This document shows positions 2,236-11,624 of a stretch of 11,624 nt of DNA, in pieces. The position numbers were made by a program, and so were the translations under genes. The notes beneath the pieces are model-generated. The model was not told the DNA's origin. It made no database searches and saw nothing but the letters and a program-made list of their open reading frames with translations. The number at the start of each line of letters is the position of its first letter. Position 1 is the first letter of the stretch. The stretch comes from Bdellovibrionales bacterium (GTDB lineage: Bacteria > Bdellovibrionota > Bdellovibrionia > Bdellovibrionales > DASUEL01), in NCBI GenBank assembly GCA_050250255.1, contig JBFWOZ010000069.1, forward strand, positions 1 to 11,624, given 5' to 3'.

Positions 2236-3285
2236 ATGGCAAAAGCATCAGAAGGTACAGATACACGAATGTTGGACGCTCATAAAACAACTCAAGATCA
2301 GCAGTGGGAAAAATCCTTAAGACCCACCTCGTTTGAAGAGTTTCCTGGTCAGCATAAAGTGAAAGAAAAACTTCGTATCTTTGTAGAAGCCGCGAAAACT
2401 CGCGGAGAATCTTTAGATCACGTGCTTCTCTCAGGTCCTCCAGGCTTAGGAAAAACCACCCTTTCACACATTCTCGCACATCATTTGGGTGTGGAAATGA
2501 AATCGACTTCGGGCCCAGCTCTTGATAAAAAAGGCGAGCTCGCAGCAATTTTAACTTCTCTTAAGCCTCACTCCATTTTGTTTATTGATGAGATTCATCG
2601 ACTCAATACGGTGGTCGAAGAATATCTCTACAGCGCAATGGAAGATTTCACTCTGGATATCATTACCGGTGAAGGTCTTGGTGCGCGTGCCATGAAGTTT
2701 CAATTGGTTCCTTTTACTTTGATCGGTGCAACGACCCGTGCAGGCCTTCTCAATGCGCCTTTTCGTGATCGCTTTGGCATCGTAGAGCGTCTCTCTTTTT
2801 ATGATCGTAAAGACCTGCAGCAAATTCTGATTCGTTCTGCAAAACTTCTTCAGGTGTCTCTCACGGAAGAAGGAGCCGAGGAAATTTCCAGACGTTGCCG
2901 AGGAACTCCTCGGATCGCTAACCGATTGCTGAAACGTGTACGTGACTACGCTCTAGTAAAAGGGGATGGCAGGATCGATGGAAAACTTGCAACCTACGCT
3001 CTCAATCAATTGGAAGTCGATCAGATGGGTCTTGACGATATGGATCGTCGTTTACTTTCACTCATTTGTGAGAAATTTAACGGTGGTCCTGTGGGTGTCG
3101 ATACGCTTTCTGCTGCCTTAAACGAAGAGCGAGATACGATTGAAGAAGTTTATGAACCTTTCTTGATTCAAGAGGGCTTCATTCAGAAAACCCCTCGCGG
3201 ACGTATGTGCACACGACTTGCGTTTGAGCATTTGAAATTAGAAGTGCCTCAGCGCTCAACCCCACAACAACCCCCTCTCCTTTGA
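2236..3285 (+). CDS. ruvB: Holliday junction branch migration DNA helicase RuvB
   Basis: [12 protein letters not shown], Walker [10 protein letters not shown], Walker [40 protein letters not shown] and TPRGR motifs. Confidence 0.99.
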
Positions 3286-3300
3286 TGAGAATGTCTCCGT

Positions 3301-3448
3301 TTGGTCGAAATGATTTCATAACGCATATAATCATATTCCTATTTTCCAAATAGTTTCCTGATCATAACGAGATTGACACAAGGTTGTGCTGTGTTTAATT
3401 CTTACTAGCGAATTTTAAAATTCCCAAAAATGATCAGGAGATCAAATC
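3301..3448 (+). promoter_or_regulatory. liv operon promoter and structured 5' leader
   Basis: Perfect TATAAT at 3326-3331 (weak TTGGTC at 3301-3306, 19-bp spacer); perfect TTGACA at 3373-3378 with only a weak -10; TTTCCTGATCAT 3354-3365 complementary to ATGATCAGGAGA 3430-3441, which contains the SD AGGAG; 14-bp palindrome GAATTTTAAAATTC at 3410-3423. Confidence 0.55.
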
Positions 3449-4630
3449 ATGAAACAAAGATTGTGCAAAACTTCCCTGTTTTCTCTGCTTGTTATGACAG
3501 CGCTGACTTTCTCCGCTTGTACAAAAAAGAATGCGGATCCTGGAGCAGATGCACAGGCAACAGTCGCCTCTGACGAAATCCTTGTGGGTGAAGTGCTTTC
3601 GTTGACGGGAGCGGAAGCAACTTTTGGAACGTCTACTTCTAATGGAACAAAGTTAGCGGTTGAAGAAATCAATGCCGCTGGTGGGATCAAAGGCAAAAAG
3701 GTTCGCGTAATCACTCTTGATAACCAAGGAAAGCCTGAAGAAGCAGCAACCGCTGTGACAAAACTGATCACACAAAATAAAGTTCAAGTGATTTTAGGTG
3801 AAGTGGCAAGCTCCCGCAGTCTTGCAATGGCACCGATTGCACAAAATAGCAAAATTCCGATGGTGAGCCCGTCTTCAACAAATCCTAAAGTGACAGAAGT
3901 AGGGGATTACATCTTCCGCGTTTGTTTCATCGATCCTTTCCAAGGAAAAGTGATGGCAAAATTCGCTCTTGATCACCTTAAAGTGAAAAAAGTAGCGATT
4001 CTTCGTGACGTGAAAAACGATTACAGTATCGGTCTAGCAGATTTCTTCATCGAAACTTTTAAAGCCGGTGGCGGTACTATCGTTGCGGATCAAAGTTATT
4101 CCGCTCAAGATATTGATTTCAAGGCTCAGCTCACAGCGATCAAAGCCAAGAAGCCAGAAGCGATCTTTGTTCCTGGTTACTACACAGATGTGGGTTTAAT
4201 TGCTCGTCAGGCGAAAAAAGACGTGGGTATCAACGTTCCACTGCTTGGTGGCGATGGTTGGGACTCTCCGAAGTTGACAGAAGTTGCTGGAGACGCTCTT
4301 GATGGTTCTTACTTCTCAAATCACTACTCTGCAGAAGACCAATCTCCACACGTTCAATCTTTCATTAAGAAGTTCAAAGAAAAATTTGGGGTTATTCCAG
4401 ATGGTCTTGCAGCAATGGGTTACGATGGCGCGAAAGTCTATTTCGATGCTGTCAATCGCGCTGCCAGCTTAAAGCCATCTGATGTACGCGACGCTTTGGC
4501 AGCCACAAAAGGCTTTCAAGGGGTAACAGGCGTGATCAGCATGGATGAGAAGCGTAATCCTGTAAAACCAGCGGTGGTTATTAAAATCGTTAAAAAAGAT
4601 TTCAAATATCAAACGACCGTAAATCCGTAA
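3449..4630 (+). CDS. livK: Branched-chain amino acid-type ABC transporter substrate-binding lipoprotein (LivK/LivJ family)
   Basis: Signal peptide with lipobox FSA-C; class I periplasmic binding protein motifs SLTGAEATFG, INAAGGIKGKK, FRVCFIDPFQG, DFKAQLTAIK, GGDGWD, GYDG and FQGVTG. Exact ligand cannot be determined from sequence. Confidence 0.93.
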   Translation: MKQRLCKTSLFSLLVMTALTFSACTKKNADPGADAQATVASDEILVGEVLSLTGAEATFGTSTSNGTKLAVEEINAAGGIKGKKVRVITLDNQGKPEEAATAVTKLITQNKVQVILGEVASSRSLAMAPIAQNSKIPMVSPSSTNPKVTEVGDYIFRVCFIDPFQGKVMAKFALDHLKVKKVAILRDVKNDYSIGLADFFIETFKAGGGTIVADQSYSAQDIDFKAQLTAIKAKKPEAIFVPGYYTDVGLIARQAKKDVGINVPLLGGDGWDSPKLTEVAGDALDGSYFSNHYSAEDQSPHVQSFIKKFKEKFGVIPDGLAAMGYDGAKVYFDAVNRAASLKPSDVRDALAATKGFQGVTGVISMDEKRNPVKPAVVIKIVKKDFKYQTTVNP

Positions 4631-4666: not shown

Positions 4667-5569
4667 GTGGTTGAATTTCTACAGCATATTATTAATGGAC
4701 TCTCTCTAGGAAGTATCTACGCACTCATCGCATTAGGTTATACGATGGTGTTCGGGATACTTAAGCTCATTAACTTTGCTCATGGCGATGTTTTTATGTT
4801 GGGCGCGTTTATCGGTATGTATAGCGCTCGCTGGCTGAATCTTGCAGATCATCCTTCTTTAGCATCTCTTTTTATTTGCTTGGCTTGTGCCATGGTTGGT
4901 TGTGCTTTAGTGGGCTTTTTGATTGAACGCTTAGCATATCGTCCTTTGAGAAATGCACCTCGTATTAACGTTTTGATTACGGCAGTTGGGGTTTCTCTCT
5001 TTTTAGAGTTTGCAGGCCAAATCGTATTTGGTTCTGACCCAAAACTTTTTCCTCCTGTTTACGCCCCCGAAGGTGATTGGAATATCGGTGAAATTCGCCT
5101 GAGCCCTCTTCATGGCGTCGTTTTTATTGTCTCCATCATTATGATGGTGATCCTCCAGTACGTGATTTTTAAAACTCGTCTCGGTCGTGCGATGCGCGCC
5201 GTGAGTTTTAATCATGATCTTGCAAGTCTCATGGGAATTCCCACGGATCGCGTGATCTCCTATACATTTATGATCGGATCCGCACTTGCAGGCGCTGCCG
5301 GCGTGATGGTGGGTCTCATTTATCCAAAAATTGAACCTCTCATGGGCGTTATGCCGGGCTTAAAAGCTTTCGTTGCGGCGGTTTTTGGTGGAATCGGAAA
5401 TATCACCGGAGCCGTAGTGGGAGCTTTAGTTTTAGGTCTCAGTGAAGAATTCCTAGTGGCTTACTGGGCGCCCACATTTCGTGATGCTCTCGCATTCTCT
5501 CTTTTGATTTTGGTTCTTTTATTTAAACCGACTGGGCTGTTCGGCACGAGCCGACGGGAGAAGGTATGA
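4667..5569 (+). CDS. livH: Branched-chain amino acid ABC transporter permease LivH
   Basis: NGLSLGSIYALIALGYTMVFGILKLINFAHG, ERLAYRPLR, TRLGRAMRA and KAFVAAVFGGIGN motifs; GTG start. Confidence 0.96.
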   Translation: MVEFLQHIINGLSLGSIYALIALGYTMVFGILKLINFAHGDVFMLGAFIGMYSARWLNLADHPSLASLFICLACAMVGCALVGFLIERLAYRPLRNAPRINVLITAVGVSLFLEFAGQIVFGSDPKLFPPVYAPEGDWNIGEIRLSPLHGVVFIVSIIMMVILQYVIFKTRLGRAMRAVSFNHDLASLMGIPTDRVISYTFMIGSALAGAAGVMVGLIYPKIEPLMGVMPGLKAFVAAVFGGIGNITGAVVGALVLGLSEEFLVAYWAPTFRDALAFSLLILVLLFKPTGLFGTSRREKV

Positions 5570-6561
5570 CGGCGACGCTCCGTTCTCTCAGCCTGTGGTT
5601 GAGTATCATTCTTCTCATTTGGCTTTTTGATATCTTCGGCTCTCAGGATATGAATCCTTATTATTTCAGTATCGTTATGTATGCTGGAATCAACGTGATT
5701 ATGGCCGTGAGCTTGAACTTAGTGAATGGCTTTACCGGCCAGTTTTCTATGGGGCACGCGGGCTTCATGGCTGTCGGCGCTTATGGTTCGGCCTACATTA
5801 CCACCACTCTACAAACAGCTTCGCCAGAGATGATGACAGGAACGCAAGCCACTTTAATTTTCCTCATTTCTCTTTTCGTGGGTGGCGGACTTGCCGCTCT
5901 TGCTGGTTACATTGTGGGTCTTCCTTCTTTGAGATTAAGCGGAGATTATCTCGCCATCGTCACTCTCGGTTTTGGTGAGATCATTCGCGTGGTTCTTTTA
6001 AATATGAATGTCGTTGGCGGAGCCCGTGGAATGCCGAGCATTCCGGCTCTTTCAAGTTTTGGCTGGGTTTACACTTTCATGGTGATCACCATTTTTGTGG
6101 TGTGGAGACTTTTAAAATCAGCACACGGTCGAGCTTTTCTCTCAGTACGAGAAGATGAGATCGCGGCTCAGTCGATGGGAGTGAACACGACGACGACGAA
6201 AGTGCGCGCTTTTGTTCTCTCCGCATTTTTTGCAGGCATCGGTGGCGGACTTTTTGCTCATTACTTACGCTTTATCAATCCTTCAACTTTCGACCTCAAC
6301 CGTAGCTTTGAAATCATCATCATGGTGGTGATGGGCGGAATGGGTAGCGTGACCGGTTCGGTCATTGCGGGAGCTTCTTTAACGATCTTGCGTGAAGGTT
6401 TAAGAGAATTACAGCAGGTGACTTTGATTGATCTTCGTATGGTGATTTATTCTCTTTTGCTGATTATTCTTATGCTCACGCGTCCCACAGGACTATTTGG
6501 CACAAAAGAACTTCCTGATCTTTTTGAGCGTTTTAGAAAAAAGTCAGGAGGGCAAAATTAA
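5566..6561 (+). CDS. livM: Branched-chain amino acid ABC transporter permease LivM
   Basis: SLNLVNGFTGQFSMGHAGF, LRLSGDYLAIVTLGFGEII, REDEIAAQSMG and GGMGS motifs; ATGA overlap with the livH stop. Confidence 0.96.
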   Translation: MTATLRSLSLWLSIILLIWLFDIFGSQDMNPYYFSIVMYAGINVIMAVSLNLVNGFTGQFSMGHAGFMAVGAYGSAYITTTLQTASPEMMTGTQATLIFLISLFVGGGLAALAGYIVGLPSLRLSGDYLAIVTLGFGEIIRVVLLNMNVVGGARGMPSIPALSSFGWVYTFMVITIFVVWRLLKSAHGRAFLSVREDEIAAQSMGVNTTTTKVRAFVLSAFFAGIGGGLFAHYLRFINPSTFDLNRSFEIIIMVVMGGMGSVTGSVIAGASLTILREGLRELQQVTLIDLRMVIYSLLLIILMLTRPTGLFGTKELPDLFERFRKKSGGQN

Positions 6562-7352
6562 TGTCGGTTGCTCTCAAGGTACAATCCCTCACCATCCAGT
6601 TTGGTGGTTTAAAAGCCGTTTCTGCACTCGATCTTTCGATTGAGAAGGGAATGATTTTTGGTCTCATCGGCCCCAACGGCGCGGGTAAAACCACCGTGTT
6701 CAACATGCTCACGGGAGTGTATCAGCCGACAGCGGGTACGATCGAAGCTTTTGATCAAAGCGTTGTGGGCTGTAAGCCCTACGAAATCACCGCTAAAGGT
6801 TTGGCGCGAACATTTCAAAACATTCGACTTTTTAAAGATCTTACCGTGCTTGATAATCTTATGGTTTCTCGCGATCAGAGCACGCAGACACCAAAATTTG
6901 GCCTTCTCCGTTCTGTTTTGAGAACTCCACGAGTGATGGAAGTAGAAGAGAGTAAGAAAAAAGAGTGTGTTGAACTTTTAAAACTCTTCAAGCTCGACCA
7001 TCGCAAAGACGATCTCGCTAAAAATCTTCCTTACGGTGCCCAACGCCGCCTCGAAATCGCACGTGCGATGGCGACCGGGGCTCAACTTCTTCTTCTTGAT
7101 GAACCAGCGGCGGGCATGAATCCACAAGAAAAAATTGAATTGATGAATACCATTCGTTTCATCCGCGATCATTTTAAAGTCACCGTGCTTTTGATTGAGC
7201 ATGATATGAAGCTTGTGATGGGAGTTTGTGAGAAAATTGCCGTTTTAGATTACGGCGTGAAAATCTCTGAAGGAAATCCCCAGCACGTGCAGAACGATCC
7301 GCGTGTGATTGAGGCGTATTTAGGAAAGGAGCATGCACATGTCAAATCGTGA
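6561..7352 (+). CDS. livG: Branched-chain amino acid ABC transporter ATP-binding protein LivG
   Basis: FGGLKAV, Walker A GPNGAGKTT, RTFQNIRLF, LivG-type signature LPYGAQRRLEIARA, LLDEPAAG, IEHDM and VIEAYLG; TAATG coupling to livM. Confidence 0.97.
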   Translation: MSVALKVQSLTIQFGGLKAVSALDLSIEKGMIFGLIGPNGAGKTTVFNMLTGVYQPTAGTIEAFDQSVVGCKPYEITAKGLARTFQNIRLFKDLTVLDNLMVSRDQSTQTPKFGLLRSVLRTPRVMEVEESKKKECVELLKLFKLDHRKDDLAKNLPYGAQRRLEIARAMATGAQLLLLDEPAAGMNPQEKIELMNTIRFIRDHFKVTVLLIEHDMKLVMGVCEKIAVLDYGVKISEGNPQHVQNDPRVIEAYLGKEHAHVKS

Positions 7353-8070
7353 TGTGGAAAAGGCTCTTTTTAAATGTGAAAACATCAGCGTCCACTACGG
7401 CGCGATCCGTGGAATCAGCGATATTTCTTTTTCCGTGAATAAAGGAGAGATTGTCACCCTCATCGGCTCTAACGGTGCGGGTAAGTCGACCACTCTTCGC
7501 GCGATCTCGGGACTTGTAAAGTTAAGCAGAGGGCAAATCTCTTATCAAAACGAATTAATTTCGAATTTGCCAGCTCATGAAATTGTGAAGCGTCGTCTCT
7601 GTCAGGTACCTGAGGGTCGCGGAATTTTCTTAAACTTGAGCGTAGAAGAGAATTTAGATCTCGGTGCATGGACCATGAAGGATCACTCTACGTACGATGC
7701 GGATCTCGAGCATGTGTTCCAATTGTTCCCTCGTCTCAAAGAACGTCGTAAGCAAAATTCCGGAACTCTGTCGGGTGGAGAGTTGCAGATGCTCGCCATC
7801 GGCCGCGCACTCATGGCCCATCCTGAGTTTTTACTCCTTGATGAACCAAGTCTTGGGCTTGCACCGCAAGTGATTGAGAAAATTTTTGAAATCATTAAAA
7901 CCATCAATAAAGAAGGCACGACGGTTCTCCTCGTAGAACAAAATGCGCTTCAAGCTTTGCAGATCGCGCATTACGGAATCGTTTTGGAATCAGGATCCAT
8001 CAAAACTCAAGGGCCTGCCAAAGATCTCCTCGCTTCCGACGAAGTTCGCAAAGCCTACCTCGGCGTCTAA
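7339..8070 (+). CDS. livF: Branched-chain amino acid ABC transporter ATP-binding protein LivF
   Basis: GSNGAGKST, VPEGRGIF, FPRLKERR, LSGGELQMLAIGRAL, LLDEPSLGLAP, VEQN and VRKAYLG. The ATG at 7339 is preferred over 7333 because AAGGAG (7326-7331) is spaced 7 nt from it. Confidence 0.97.
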   Translation: MSNRDVEKALFKCENISVHYGAIRGISDISFSVNKGEIVTLIGSNGAGKSTTLRAISGLVKLSRGQISYQNELISNLPAHEIVKRRLCQVPEGRGIFLNLSVEENLDLGAWTMKDHSTYDADLEHVFQLFPRLKERRKQNSGTLSGGELQMLAIGRALMAHPEFLLLDEPSLGLAPQVIEKIFEIIKTINKEGTTVLLVEQNALQALQIAHYGIVLESGSIKTQGPAKDLLASDEVRKAYLGV

Positions 8071-8096: not shown

Positions 8097-8630
8097 CTAC
8101 TTTAATTTTTTTGTTGCGAATTTTTTGATTGCTCGAAGGGTTTTGTAGACCCAATCAAATTCAGCGTTTTCAACAACCTCCAAATATAAACTTGGTATCG
8201 CATCGGGCGTATTGGTAAGGTGTAAAATCCCATATTCTAAAAGCGTTGCTAGGGCTTCATTTTCGTCAGCGACGATGTGATAGAACTCGTGAATCAAAAC
8301 TTGAATTTGTGCGCCATCACTGAATGTGTAAAAAACAGGGCATACGTTAATGAAAGGTTTGTTCACATAGGCAAGCGCTCTCTGACTACAAACAGCATCA
8401 ATAGGGTCTTTCAGTTCGAGGGGAACGGTTGCTCCTACATCGAGTATTTTCTGCATGTTAGTTTTTAAAAAATCGAAAGCCTTCGGATCTATTTTTAAAG
8501 TCTTTGGGCTTTGTTTTTCAAGGATTTGGGAGGCCTGACGGATTTTTTCAAAAGTCAGTTTGTAATCCGTCTGCTGGGCTTGGGCCGTCAGAGAGCTGAA
8601 TAAAAGAAATCCTAAAAGCAAATTTTTCAT
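8097..8630 (-). CDS. Secreted small zincin-like metallopeptidase (HExxH), hypothetical
   Basis: Sec signal peptide MKNLLLGFLLFSSLTAQA; CSQRALAYV...INVCPVFY...LIHEFYH (HEFYH codons at 8277-8291), followed by ENEALATLLE. Confidence 0.7.
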   Translation of the reverse strand: MKNLLLGFLLFSSLTAQAQQTDYKLTFEKIRQASQILEKQSPKTLKIDPKAFDFLKTNMQKILDVGATVPLELKDPIDAVCSQRALAYVNKPFINVCPVFYTFSDGAQIQVLIHEFYHIVADENEALATLLEYGILHLTNTPDAIPSLYLEVVENAEFDWVYKTLRAIKKFATKKLK

Positions 8631-8724: not shown

Positions 8725-9666
8725 CTATTTCTGGATTTGAAGTAAGACCGAATACAGCGCTTTGAGAAGATCAGGATCAAAGCGCGCCGTTAATTTTTCG
8801 TTCATCATATTCACGGCATCAGTAGGGCTCATAGGATTATTATACGAACGCTTTGTGGTCAAAGCGTCGTAACAATCGGTGATCGCCACAATCTTCGCCA
8901 TAGGATGAATTTCACTTCCCGAAAGAGACTGTGGATAGCCATTACCAGCTTCATTTTCATGGTGCTCAAACACGCAAGCCTTCATGTTGTCGGTGGCTTC
9001 GGCGTAATCATTTAAAATTTGTAAGCCAAAGAGCGGATGATTTTTCATCTGCGCCCACTCGACGTCATCAAGAGGGCCTTTCTTACAAATAATGTCCGCA
9101 CTCACGTGCCGCTTACCGATATCGTGGAAGAGAGATCCACGCCCCAACTCCATAAGCTCAGCAGGAGTTGTGTAACCCGCAGCGCCGCCTAAAGCTAAAG
9201 AGTAAACACATACATCAAGTGAGTGGTTGTAAGTGTAGAAATCATGGCTTGAAAGACCGATGAGGTTGGAGAGACCATCAGGCTCTTGCTCCATGAATTG
9301 CACAAAGTTGTTGATCACATCTTTGGATTGATCAAGCGCTTGGTAGACATCAGGATTTTCAAAAAGTTCTTCGACAAGAGAGTAGGAGCTTTCTCTTAAG
9401 ATCAAAGCCTTTTCCTTTGCGGGGAGGCTACTGTCGGTGAGCTGTCTGTGGACATACTTTTTGAACTCAATACGATCTTGTTCTTTGATATAGAAGACTT
9501 CAGAGTTGCTGCGGCTGAGCTTTGATAATTTTTCGTCGTCGAGGCTATCGCCGGCACGTAAATAGAGGACGTACTTTCCATTAATCAAGACGTGGAGGTC
9601 GAAGGTCGTCGGACGTTTTGGATGAAGGCTTTGAATACGAATTTTGAGAAACTTCTCTTCGCTCAT
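8725..9666 (-). CDS. HD-GYP domain cyclic dinucleotide phosphodiesterase (RxxN variant)
   Basis: Metal-binding and family motifs HDFYTYNHS, LFHDIGK, EHHENEAGNGYP and AITDCYDALTTKRSYN are intact. Start placed at ATG 9666 (MSEEKF, AAGGA upstream) because the 9756 start would overlap the recG start. Confidence 0.93.
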   Translation of the reverse strand: MSEEKFLKIRIQSLHPKRPTTFDLHVLINGKYVLYLRAGDSLDDEKLSKLSRSNSEVFYIKEQDRIEFKKYVHRQLTDSSLPAKEKALILRESSYSLVEELFENPDVYQALDQSKDVINNFVQFMEQEPDGLSNLIGLSSHDFYTYNHSLDVCVYSLALGGAAGYTTPAELMELGRGSLFHDIGKRHVSADIICKKGPLDDVEWAQMKNHPLFGLQILNDYAEATDNMKACVFEHHENEAGNGYPQSLSGSEIHPMAKIVAITDCYDALTTKRSYNNPMSPTDAVNMMNEKLTARFDPDLLKALYSVLLQIQK

Positions 9667-9748
9667 TTTAGACTTATTCCTTCGAGGCTGTTTCATTAGT
9701 GTGCCATGATTTGCCCCGCTGTCCAATATCGGATATGAACAATATGTG

Positions 9749-11624
9749 ATGAACAAAAAATCCCCTTATTCTCCTGCACCCGGCCCGACACTTGACACGC
9801 CTGTTCAATATTTAAAAAGTGTGGGACCTCATCGAGCTAGTCTTTTATCCCGGAAGGACATCCAAACCGTCGGGGATTTGCTGTCTTATTTTCCTCGCGC
9901 TTACGAAGATCGACGTGCGGCCCGAAACATTTCGTCGCTTCTGCCAAACGAGATTGTCAGCCTACAAGCAGAGATCGTGCGTGTGTATGCTGCAAACTTG
10001 GGGCGATCAAAAAGAAAAATGTATGATGTCGTTGTGAAAGACAGTTCTGGAAAAATTCACTGTAAATATTTTCGCGTCCCTTACAAGGGGTATTTTGAAC
10101 GTCTTGCCATCGGGAGTGCAGTTCGCGTGGTGGGGAAAGTCACGCTCTACCGTGGGCAAATGGAATTTCATCATCCTGACATTGTGTTGAGTGAAGAAGA
10201 ATCTGAAGAAAACTTAGATGCGATCGTGCCGATATATCCTGAAACGGAAGGTCTCACATCACGCACTCTTCATAAAACAGTTCAGGCCGCGCTTGAACAA
10301 GTCGCCATTCCCGAAAACCTGCCCTACACGGTAAGAAAAGACTATTACCTCATCTCTCGTGATGAGGCTTGGAGGCTTCTTCATTTCCCCAGCCAAGAAA
10401 TGTCTCCGCAACTTGCAAGCTTTCGTACCCCTGCACACAGGCGCGTGATTTTCGAAGAATTTTTTTGGTTGGAACTTCTGTTGGCCAAAAAACGTGAAGG
10501 CATAGTGAAGGCGATAGGGCCAAAAATTCATGGAGATTCTTCGGTTCTAGATAAGATCAAAAAGAGTTTACCCTTTGAATTGACCGGCGCACAGAGAAGA
10601 GTTCTAGAAGAAATTCTTCAGGATATGGGCAAAGCACACCCGATGCATCGTCTTGTACAAGGAGATGTGGGAAGTGGAAAAACAATCGTGGCCCTCATGG
10701 CAGCGACTCAAGTTGTGGTGGACGGTTATCAATGTGCATTGATGGCCCCCACGGAAATTCTCTCTGAACAACATTTCTTAAATTGCAAAAAATGGCTTGA
10801 GCCCTTGGGATTTCGAGTGGCCCAACTCACTGGGAGAATGACCCAAAAGGAGCGCTCACTCATTACGGGAGCTTTAGAAAAAGGAGCTGTTGATCTTGTG
10901 GTGGGTACCCATGCGCTCATTCAAGAGGATGTCGAATTTCATCGCTTAGGGCTTGTCATTATCGATGAGCAGCATCGTTTCGGTGTGAGCCAGAGGGGGC
11001 ACTTAAAAAATAAAGGAATAGAACCACACTTTCTGGTGATGACCGCGACACCTATTCCCCGCACGCTCGCGATGACTGTCTACGGAGATTTAGATGTTTC
11101 TGTGATTGGGGAAATGCCAAAGGGTCGTCAGCCAGTGGTGACCAAGATGGTGTATGAGTCGAAGCGTGAAAATGTTATGGGGTTTTTAAAACAAAAATTA
11201 GAAGAAGGTCATCAAGCCTACATCATCTATCCTCTCGTTGATGAAAGTGAAAAGATGGATCTGCGAGATGCGGTGAAGGCGTTTGAAGATATGAAGGCGC
11301 AGTTTCCTCAGTTCCAATTTGGCCTGCTTCATGGGCGAATGAAGTCAGAAGAAAAAGACGAAGTCATGACTCGGTTTCGAGAGGGCAAAGTCCAAGCACT
11401 CATTTCGACAACGGTGATTGAAGTGGGAGTGGATGTTCCTAACGCCACATTAATGCTCATCGAACACTCAGAGCGTTTTGGGCTTTCTCAGCTTCATCAG
11501 TTACGAGGACGTGTGGGTCGGGGAACAAAGAAAAGTTACTGCGTTTTGATGCTGGGGAATGCTCTATCGGAAGAAGCGAAAGCCCGTTGTGAAATCATGG
11601 TATCAACAACCGACGGTTTTAAGA
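9749..11624 (+). CDS. recG: ATP-dependent DNA helicase RecG (3'-truncated by the window edge)
   Basis: Absent from the ORF track because there is no stop in the window. Read manually: MNKK...PVQYLKSVGP...YFPRAYEDR, PIYPETEGL, LPFELTGAQ, RLVQGDVGSGKT (GGA at 10661), MAPTEIL, IIDEQHRFG (GAT at 10964), MTATPIPRTL, LHGRM, TTVIEVGVDVPNA, ERFGLSQLHQLRGRVGRG (CAG at 11498) and TDGF. The motifs whose coordinates were checked are in one frame. Alternative start GTG at 9746. Confidence 0.97.
   Translation, partial: MNKKSPYSPAPGPTLDTPVQYLKSVGPHRASLLSRKDIQTVGDLLSYFPRAYEDRRAARNISSLLPNEIVSLQAEIVRVYAANLGRSKRKMYDVVVKDSSGKIHCKYFRVPYKGYFERLAIGSAVRVVGKVTLYRGQMEFHHPDIVLSEEESEENLDAIVPIYPETEGLTSRTLHKTVQAALEQVAIPENLPYTVRKDYYLISRDEAWRLLHFPSQEMSPQLASFRTPAHRRVIFEEFFWLELLLAKKREGIVKAIGPKIHGDSSVLDKIKKSLPFELTGAQRRVLEEILQDMGKAHPMHRLVQGDVGSGKTIVALMAATQVVVDGYQCALMAPTEILSEQHFLNCKKWLEPLGFRVAQLTGRMTQKERSLITGALEKGAVDLVVGTHALIQEDVEFHRLGLVIIDEQHRFGVSQRGHLKNKGIEPHFLVMTATPIPRTLAMTVYGDLDVSVIGEMPKGRQPVVTKMVYESKRENVMGFLKQKLEEGHQAYIIYPLVDESEKMDLRDAVKAFEDMKAQFPQFQFGLLHGRMKSEEKDEVMTRFREGKVQALISTTVIEVGVDVPNATLMLIEHSERFGLSQLHQLRGRVGRGTKKSYCVLMLGNALSEEAKARCEIMVSTTDGFK

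Follow-up and report, generated by a model that had tools for sequence, protein, structure and literature searches.

A probable sigma-70-type promoter and a lineage-specific inverted repeat in the ruvB–livK spacer of a Bdellovibrionales bacterium

The 163-nt spacer between ruvB and a livK-like gene in a Bdellovibrionales genome probably holds an ordinary sigma-70-type promoter of the liv operon (TTGACA at 3373, AATTCT at 3397, transcription start near 3410) together with an unconserved repeat, P1, that has no selected job. An earlier note on this DNA had read the same letters as a candidate cis-regulatory RNA, a riboswitch-like three-way junction of helices P1, P2 and P3 that is transcribed from a TATAAT farther upstream and buries the ribosome-binding site of livK. 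Comparison with orthologous leaders suggests instead that TTGACA at 3373 belongs to a conserved promoter, likely the main one, and that P1 is probably an inverted repeat peculiar to this lineage, with no regulatory role under selection.

The window, that is, the whole stretch of 11,624 nt analyzed here, is one contig (C69) of a genome that is 99% complete (G000), and within it the livK-like gene is the first gene of a livH-M-G-F-like ABC operon (Table 1). The transporter genes score below the curated NCBIfam cut-offs, and we therefore infer their substrate. Named records with the closest LivK proteins belong, among the matches listed, mostly to Bdellovibrionales, Oligoflexales and Bacteriovoracaceae. 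A scan of the spacer found no terminator-like site between ruvB and livK, so that some read-through from ruvCAB is plausible; the genome also has two LexA-family genes, a context for possible SOS control of ruvCAB. Of three DNA sequencing runs from one study, only the possible source run covers the spacer; it shows no variant in the spacer and hence yields no covariation between strains. Beyond the operon, a 177-aa protein with a signal-peptide-like start and without an NCBIfam or Pfam match is encoded at 8097–8630 on the reverse strand, convergent with livF, and an HD_5-domain protein, HD-GYP-like and a possible cyclic di-GMP phosphodiesterase, at 8725–9756 on the same strand, downstream of recG.

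Table 1. Genes and sequence features in and around the ruvB–livK spacer (window numbering)
Feature	Coordinates	Strand	Remarks
ruvB	2236..3285	+	Last gene of ruvC-ruvA-ruvB; NCBIfam RuvB model over cut-off; likely source of read-through RNA
22-codon ORF	3285..3353	+	TGATG overlap with ruvB stop; second in-frame ATG at 3291; putative; not conserved in L119
Free-standing TATAAT	3326..3331	+	Without −35 box or TG extension; same letters as Ile run; likely no promoter
Weak 6-bp 5' hairpin	3339..3353	+	Pair probability 0.30–0.46; not conserved
P1 5' strand (anti-SD)	3354..3365	+	Upstream of predicted start; likely in read-through RNA alone
P2	3369..3403	+	3369–3380 with 3390–3403, two bulges; promoter core; chance-level stability
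−35 box TTGACA	3373..3378	+	6/6 consensus; 76 nt before ATG; predicted sigma-70-type liv promoter
−10 box AATTCT	3397..3402	+	18-nt spacer; A at position 2, T at position 6
Predicted transcription start	3409..3410	+	C-G step 7–8 nt after −10 box; placed by the usual sigma-70 geometry
P3	3410..3423	+	Perfect 14-bp palindrome; would be a weak 5'-terminal hairpin of short mRNA or an operator-like DNA site
P1 3' strand with SD AGGAG (3436–3440)	3430..3441	+	AGGA predicted in loop of 5-bp hairpin 3431–3444 in short mRNA
LivK/LivJ-like periplasmic binding protein	3449..4630	+	Peripla_BP_6; under NCBIfam cut-off for E. coli-type model; ATG at 3449
livH-, livM-, livG-, livF-like genes	4667..8070	+	Same operon; best NCBIfam hits, all under curated cut-offs

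Leaders of orthologous liv operons were gathered from 41 relatives, at least 80 GTDB loci, at least 80 metagenome loci, one family search and one order-wide search; the last matched 146 of 301 genomes and contributed its listed loci plus 80 upstream regions picked by hand across genera. In the first set, the A and T of the −10 box stand at a spacer of 17 or 18 nt in 23 of 39 TTGAC sites, and at most six sites fall at any other spacer from 12 to 24 nt. The last set gives 33 of 77 at 17 or 18 nt, with side peaks at 22 nt (9) and 24 nt (15) that are probably due to related genomes. The motif TTGAC-N17/18-NANNNT is present within 200 nt in 71 of 248 distinct liv leaders (the livK leader of the window not counted), related genomes among these leaders not being independent; TATAAT occurs in six of the same leaders and a P1-like 8-mer in one. 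It counts against the promoter reading that the motif as defined is absent from the remaining 177. In genus g31, TTGACC-N17-AAT(T/C)CT lies at −55 to −85 amid variable flanks in 18 of 23 fetched leaders, which again are not independent, and the window carries TTGACA-N18-AATTCT at −76, with the same −10 hexamer. The upstream gene appears by eye to end 5–30 nt before the −35 box in several g31 leaders, which leaves no room there for a long leader.

The site before livK resembles promoters of the sigma-70 (RpoD-type) class in its −35 box, in A2 and T6 of the −10 box at a spacing of 17–18 nt, and in boxes whose position before orthologs is conserved amid diverging flanks. It differs from the textbook form in that AATTCT matches TATAAT at two positions only, which is why a scan for the consensus missed it, and its activity is predicted. 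Within the genome itself, TATAAT is found in none of 35 upstream regions (90 nt) of tRNA and tmRNA genes, and one tRNA-Leu has TTGAAT-N17-AATTCT. Before tandem genes the TTGAC motif occurs 33 times in sense and 13 times in antisense orientation and TATAAT 20 and 15 times, control spacers being strand-biased as well (38 to 16). The spacer preference of 85 TTGACA sites, an AT-rich set, is weak (16 at 16 nt, 16 at 17 nt, 12 at 18 nt and 13 at 23 nt), so that own-genome support for the promoter is limited. A matrix from 70 orthologous sites scores the boxes at 3373 with their 18-nt spacer at 13.7 and the best pairing for TATAAT at 4.1, with a −35 term that is circular, as the matrix was trained on TTGAC-selected sites. 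At the −35 position of TATAAT stands TGGTCG or GGTCGA, and there is no TG extension; with no usable −35 box, the start near 3338 that the earlier note had derived from this hexamer is not borne out. The same note had proposed TTGACA at 3373 as a second promoter whose transcript lacks the anti-SD strand; the promoter stands, but its secondary rank does not, as it is likely the main one. In the available parts of a study that mapped 140 attack-phase promoters of Bdellovibrio, mostly FliA-type, the promoter table lists no start site for the liv operon of B. bacteriovorus, and branched-chain ABC genes appear, under column heads that are partly shown, to have low values in the attack phase and high values in the growth phase (PMC3627812).

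Given the sigma-70 consensus and the usual distance of +1 from the −10 box, the main liv mRNA would start at C3409 or G3410, and this predicted transcript therefore lacks the anti-SD strand, the 5' strand of P1, along with P2. It would begin with the weak P3 hairpin and would present AGGA as the loop of a 5-bp stem, the SD being predicted to be unpaired at 0.80 in this short RNA, at an opening cost of 3.0 kcal/mol, compared with 0.02 and 8.4 kcal/mol in the read-through RNA. P1 would form solely on RNAs that start upstream of about 3354, and in any of these the SD would be closed; read-through from ruvCAB would be a minor source of RNA, with the silencing of its livK site a by-product. Two mRNA isoforms of differing translatability are possible on this model, the long one being ruvCAB read-through and not a transcript from TATAAT. 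An out-of-frame ATG at 3430 on the forward strand, inside the 3' strand of P1 and 19 nt before the livK start, is preceded by no SD, and its ORF overlaps livK.

The fold described in the earlier note is accurate as drawn. Its helices, the junction strands AAC, ACUAGC and CCAAAA, and a P1 of 12 bp, one of them G-U, that covers the SD AGGAG and to which RNAfold adds a 13th pair, G3353–U3442, are at the positions given there; TATAAT, TTGACA, the SD and the livK ATG are likewise confirmed in the letters. For 3338–3460 the three-way junction is both the MFE structure and the centroid (−25.1 kcal/mol, z −2.44, 3 of 200 shuffles), and for 3338–3448 none of 200 shuffles is as stable (z −3.23). Pair probabilities in the longer stretch are 0.88–1.0 for P1, 0.72–0.98 for P3 and 0.43–0.98 for P2; the small hairpin at the 5' end is present in the letters but weak and not conserved. 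What does not survive is the junction as a whole, since its interior (3366–3429, P2 plus P3) has a z of −0.24 and is equaled by 176 of 500 shuffles. All of the excess stability stems from P1, and P2, which contains the conserved promoter motif, amounts to self-pairing of the promoter core. Nor is the claimed preference of the fold for the mRNA strand borne out: the reverse complement folds as well (−25.8 kcal/mol, z −3.19).

P1 itself is genuinely unusual, at roughly one in 100 to one in 1000, and this is also why the finding was picked for study. Our own simple gene caller yielded 2841 genes with approximate start positions, and the leaders of 664 genes with a spacer of at least 111 nt and an SD motif served for comparison. 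With the livK leader included in each count, 4 of the 664 have an SD-covering helix of at least 13 bp, 54 have an opening cost as high and 307 an overall fold as stable. When the pairing of the ribosome-binding site with the 60 nt before the −35 box is scored, livK is the sole outlier of 81 promoter-bearing leaders (z −4.9, 2 of 3000 shuffles), a result that speaks against a repeat without a job; as a general rule of this genome, an anti-RBS strand upstream of the −35 box was rejected (mean z −0.08 for tandem and −0.04 for divergent genes). Of 732 spacers, 59 contain a perfect inverted repeat of at least 10 bp whose arms stand 30–120 nt apart, against 5–9 (about 1%) per shuffled set, and many of these 59 come from repeat families. 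Several arm sequences recur in 5–7 spacers, which suggests REP- or MITE-like families. The ruvB–livK spacer was rejected as a MITE or REP copy, its only significant match genome-wide being to itself (next best E 0.07).

Conservation of P1–P3 was sought in L119, the sole locus among the matches listed with ruvB directly 5' of livK (order ruvB-livK-livH-livM; identity 79.7% for LivK and 80% for RuvB); that there is a single such relative weighs against the preferred reading. In a MAFFT alignment L119 keeps 4 of 12 P1 pairs, 5 of 12 P2 pairs, 2 of 6 pairs of the 5' hairpin and 3 of 5 P3 pairs, and when anchored on the −35 box and the ATG it keeps 3, 5, 2 and 5, respectively, so that the conservation or covariation expected of a functional junction did not materialize; most of the P2 pairs it retains belong to the promoter boxes. 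The leader of L119 carries TTGACT-N18-AAAACT at −75 and no TATAAT, and its fold is unremarkable (z −0.81, 46 of 200 shuffles). Its MFE structure places a 5-bp UUCCU/AGGAA pairing over the SD, which counts against a promoter-only reading, but this length is at or under the genome's typical value. As in the window, a hairpin- or palindrome-like stretch lies at the predicted start, in a different sequence. No LivK more than 85% identical was found in the GTDB sample or among the metagenome matches listed.

More distant leaders show no general anti-SD signal (median z −0.38 in 55 orthologous leaders). Of 166 leaders examined for pairing, 42 were promoter-bearing, and 11 near-duplicates were dropped; anti-RBS pairing upstream of the promoter reaches p ≤ 0.05 in 1 of 30 orthologs (mean z +0.23), and in 33 further leaders, not de-duplicated, in 4, with none at p ≤ 0.01 (mean z −0.29). 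On these counts a general rule of an anti-RBS strand upstream of the −35 box was rejected for orthologs as well. The exception is a pair of loci, L003 and L004 (G010:C19 and G030:C71), from another family and with another upstream gene, in which a long stem of unrelated sequence, roughly 110 nt ahead of livK, joins the bases just 5' of the −35 box with the SD and ATG (1 of 3000 shuffles). This similarly placed stem also tells against the preferred reading, and would reflect either convergent placement or chance. L007, a locus of that genus, shows a 10-bp stem of its own in another register (89 of 3000 shuffles). The SD opening costs in long and short RNA are 3.5 and 2.6 kcal/mol for L003, 9.3 and 2.6 for L004, and 5.7 and 2.4 for L007; a family-wide search around L003 gave five loci, too few for covariation. 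Between 170 and 110 nt before its livK, L007 also has a 20-codon, TTG-started, Leu/Ile-rich ORF ending I-A-I-I-L-F, the last codons of which are its 10-bp anti-SD strand; the ORF is absent from L003 and L004. A 12-bp SD-covering helix in L017 was rejected as a parallel; it draws on what looks by eye like one side of a terminator-like hairpin and lacks significance (250 of 3000 shuffles).

Leaders of g31 (L017, L240, L256, L264, L270, L276, L283 and others) have differing short inverted repeats that straddle the predicted start and flank a conserved TAT, with a mean z of only −0.93 in 15 leaders. The idea of a hairpin kept at the predicted start, which both the window and L119 have, was rejected as weak overall, the mean z in a set of 45 being −0.31.

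The rival that survives best accepts the promoter and holds that P1 is retained to keep livK silent on mRNA reading through from ruvCAB, in the manner of T4 gene e, with a ribosome opening the stem. We regard it as unlikely, and selection for read-through sequestration at livK as doubtful. In detail, ribosomes that had finished ruvB and entered the 22-codon ORF would open P1 at its last codons, and a stall on its Ile run would keep P1 shut. The rarity of the P1 duplex among shuffles and the lack of a terminator-like site after ruvB are in its favor, as is the layout, in which the ORF is entered through the TGATG stop–start overlap and its stop codon TAG (3351–3353) directly abuts the 5' strand of P1; a coupled, Ile-rich ORF that ends exactly at P1 is also an argument against the preferred reading, for which chance is not proven. 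The ORF speaks against the earlier statement that there is no Leu/Ile/Val-rich leader peptide, insofar as it has four Ile codons, three of them consecutive, and one Leu codon, an ILV content (5 of 22) that is not high. ATA, a rare codon that accounts for 4941 of the genome's 55,088 Ile codons, encodes three of the four Ile residues. In a simulation in which only RNA 3' of a 9- or 12-nt ribosome footprint was folded, the SD is 0.00–0.02 unpaired while the ribosome occupies codons no farther than 3339, the Ile run included, and about 0.8 unpaired once it is at 3348–3351.

As background, 5 of 268 tandem spacers and 136 of 3000 shuffles contain a coupled ORF that stops in the range that would open P1, and in 17 of 3000 shuffles a coupled ORF both reaches P1 and carries three consecutive Ile codons; 5 of 527 spacers, and 12 of 1000 shuffles, hold an ORF with such a triplet. 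The features were selected post hoc, however, the shuffle kept the first base and so favored TGATG, and the Ile run coincides with the AT-rich letters of TATAAT. In L119 there is neither a coupled ATG ORF nor an Ile run, and its anti-SD pairing spans only 5 bp; an ORF with the Ile triplet is found in none of the 248 orthologous leaders, where ILV runs match shuffles (14 versus 15.7). The sign is wrong for an importer induced by starvation, which a stall would hold off, and an internal promoter would bypass the gate. The different long anti-RBS strand that abuts the −35 box in L003 and L004 can be cited in support, but the effect on SD opening is not robust in L003. The fullest version, in which the 13-bp stem locks the livK site on read-through mRNA, completion of the ORF unlocks it, the promoter mRNA is always open, and L003/L004 and L007 have arrived at the same solution convergently, seems to us slightly less likely again.

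Upstream ORFs of the SecM–secA type provide one precedent for coupling of this kind. Translational coupling through stop–start overlaps with short ORFs is documented in a further study (PMC13285730), and here too such an overlap feeds a short ORF and a ribosome at its end would expose the ribosome-binding site; those ORFs overlap the main gene, whereas the present one stops 95 nt short of livK and would work by way of a long-range helix. The leader-peptide attenuators of ilv and leu operons use a short ORF with a run of branched-chain codons (PMC6123439), and a short ORF with such codons, including a cognate run, likewise precedes a branched-chain operon here. In contrast to those attenuators, there is no terminator and no SD of its own, the peptide is not conserved, and a stall is predicted to turn expression off (SD 0.00–0.01 unpaired at the Ile codons).

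A strand upstream of the proximal start that closes the long RNA and leaves the short one open is the anatomy of several T4 genes and of IS10, which is protected by it from external promoters. The livK leader displays this anatomy in silico only, and it is not kept in relatives, the SD of L119 staying 0.52 unpaired where the short RNA of the window gives 0.80 and few orthologous leaders reaching significance in the pairing test described above. According to the T4 study (PMC3014915), the SDs of genes e, soc, 49 and I-TevI are buried in long transcripts initiated upstream, and transcripts from a promoter just 5' of the ribosome-binding site do not carry the 5' strand and are translated. The likeness to livK extends to the predicted closed-long, open-short design. 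The structure at gene e is demonstrated, cuts lysozyme synthesis 100-fold, occurs in related phages and guards a lethal gene (PMC3014915), whereas the livK stem, with 64 nt between its arms, is predicted, is absent from the syntenic L119 and guards a harmless transporter. For IS10, read-in transcripts that sequester the translation signals of the transposase are cited in PMC13181058; unlike that case, there is no mobile element here, and the spacer has no other significant copy in the genome.

It is also conceivable, if quite improbable, that the repeats act as DNA, the TGATCA-containing arms (3356–3365 and 3430–3439), the 14-bp palindrome at 3410–3423, or both, being repressor sites that flank and overlap the promoter. 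Over 10 bp the two arms match as perfect complements and are strand-symmetric; 72 bp, or some seven helical turns, separate their GATC cores, and the palindrome would occupy +1 to +14, at the position of the palindrome-like stretch of L119. Yet neither L119 nor 247 of the 248 leaders contain the arm sequence, the 10-mer is no repeated motif in the genome, where it has four exact intergenic copies, two of which are these very arms, and intergenic perfect palindromes of at least 14 bp number 36. A Dam/Lrp epigenetic switch on the analogy of pap, suggested by three GATC sites near the promoter, was rejected: no Dam-type (D12) methylase and no Lrp/AsnC-family gene was found in the genome, and GATC shows no bias (observed/expected 1.01).

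Least probable, to the point of being very hard to sustain, is the riboswitch-like junction transcribed from TATAAT near 3338 and opened by a ligand, a protein or an sRNA. Besides the MFE and centroid fold, it has in its favor that P1, with a probability of about 1 in every long context folded, fully buries the SD at an opening cost of 8–15 kcal/mol, depending on the stretch folded, that the downstream operon is an amino-acid importer, and that csrA is present. However, P2 plus P3 is at chance level, conservation in L119 is lacking, and TATAAT is poorly scored and rare among the leaders. As the earlier note had supposed, no known riboswitch or T-box class is recognizable: the Rfam 15 covariance models give no relevant match, the one match in the window at E ≤ 5 being snoRNA sR45 (E 3.6) inside ruvB, and none of 10 orthologous loci has a match at gathering score. 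A switchable aptamer needs a competing fold, and none of similar stability was found, which counts against this reading; the best SD-open fold (−16.2 kcal/mol) lies 8.9 kcal/mol above the MFE and rearranges P1 only.

Control by a ligand, protein or sRNA is likewise unsupported. An Hfq-dependent sRNA was rejected, as Hfq was not found in the 99%-complete genome. For a CsrA target no enrichment was seen: the short RNA has one GGA-in-loop SD, where CsrA-controlled sites usually come with additional GGA motifs, and SDs of this type, common with 117 of 993 genes in the genome, show no excess among orthologs, at 8 of 110. The csrA gene lies at G000:C4:83916-84074 (L200), among neighbors that we take to be flagellar. 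In the literature searched, with most subscription journals outside its reach and some sources seen in part, no livK riboswitch or anti-SD leader is described. The earlier note had itself set a start downstream of 3365, and a lack of conservation of P1–P3, against its proposal; the conserved promoter predicts a start near 3410, and P1–P3 are unconserved, so that as far as can be computed the riboswitch reading fails on its own terms.

The likeliest reading, a housekeeping-type promoter with a degenerate −10 box, matters little in itself. It yields as a by-product a comparative promoter signature, TTGAC-N17/18-NANNNT, for the liv operons of the order, and a caution that a promoter region folded on paper may resemble a riboswitch. 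If, instead, the gate on read-through mRNA were real, it would tie amino-acid import to unhindered translation and to the decoding of rare ATA codons, and it would be a chromosomal case of T4/IS10-type control with the ribosome as key and a sign opposite to that of classical amino-acid attenuators.
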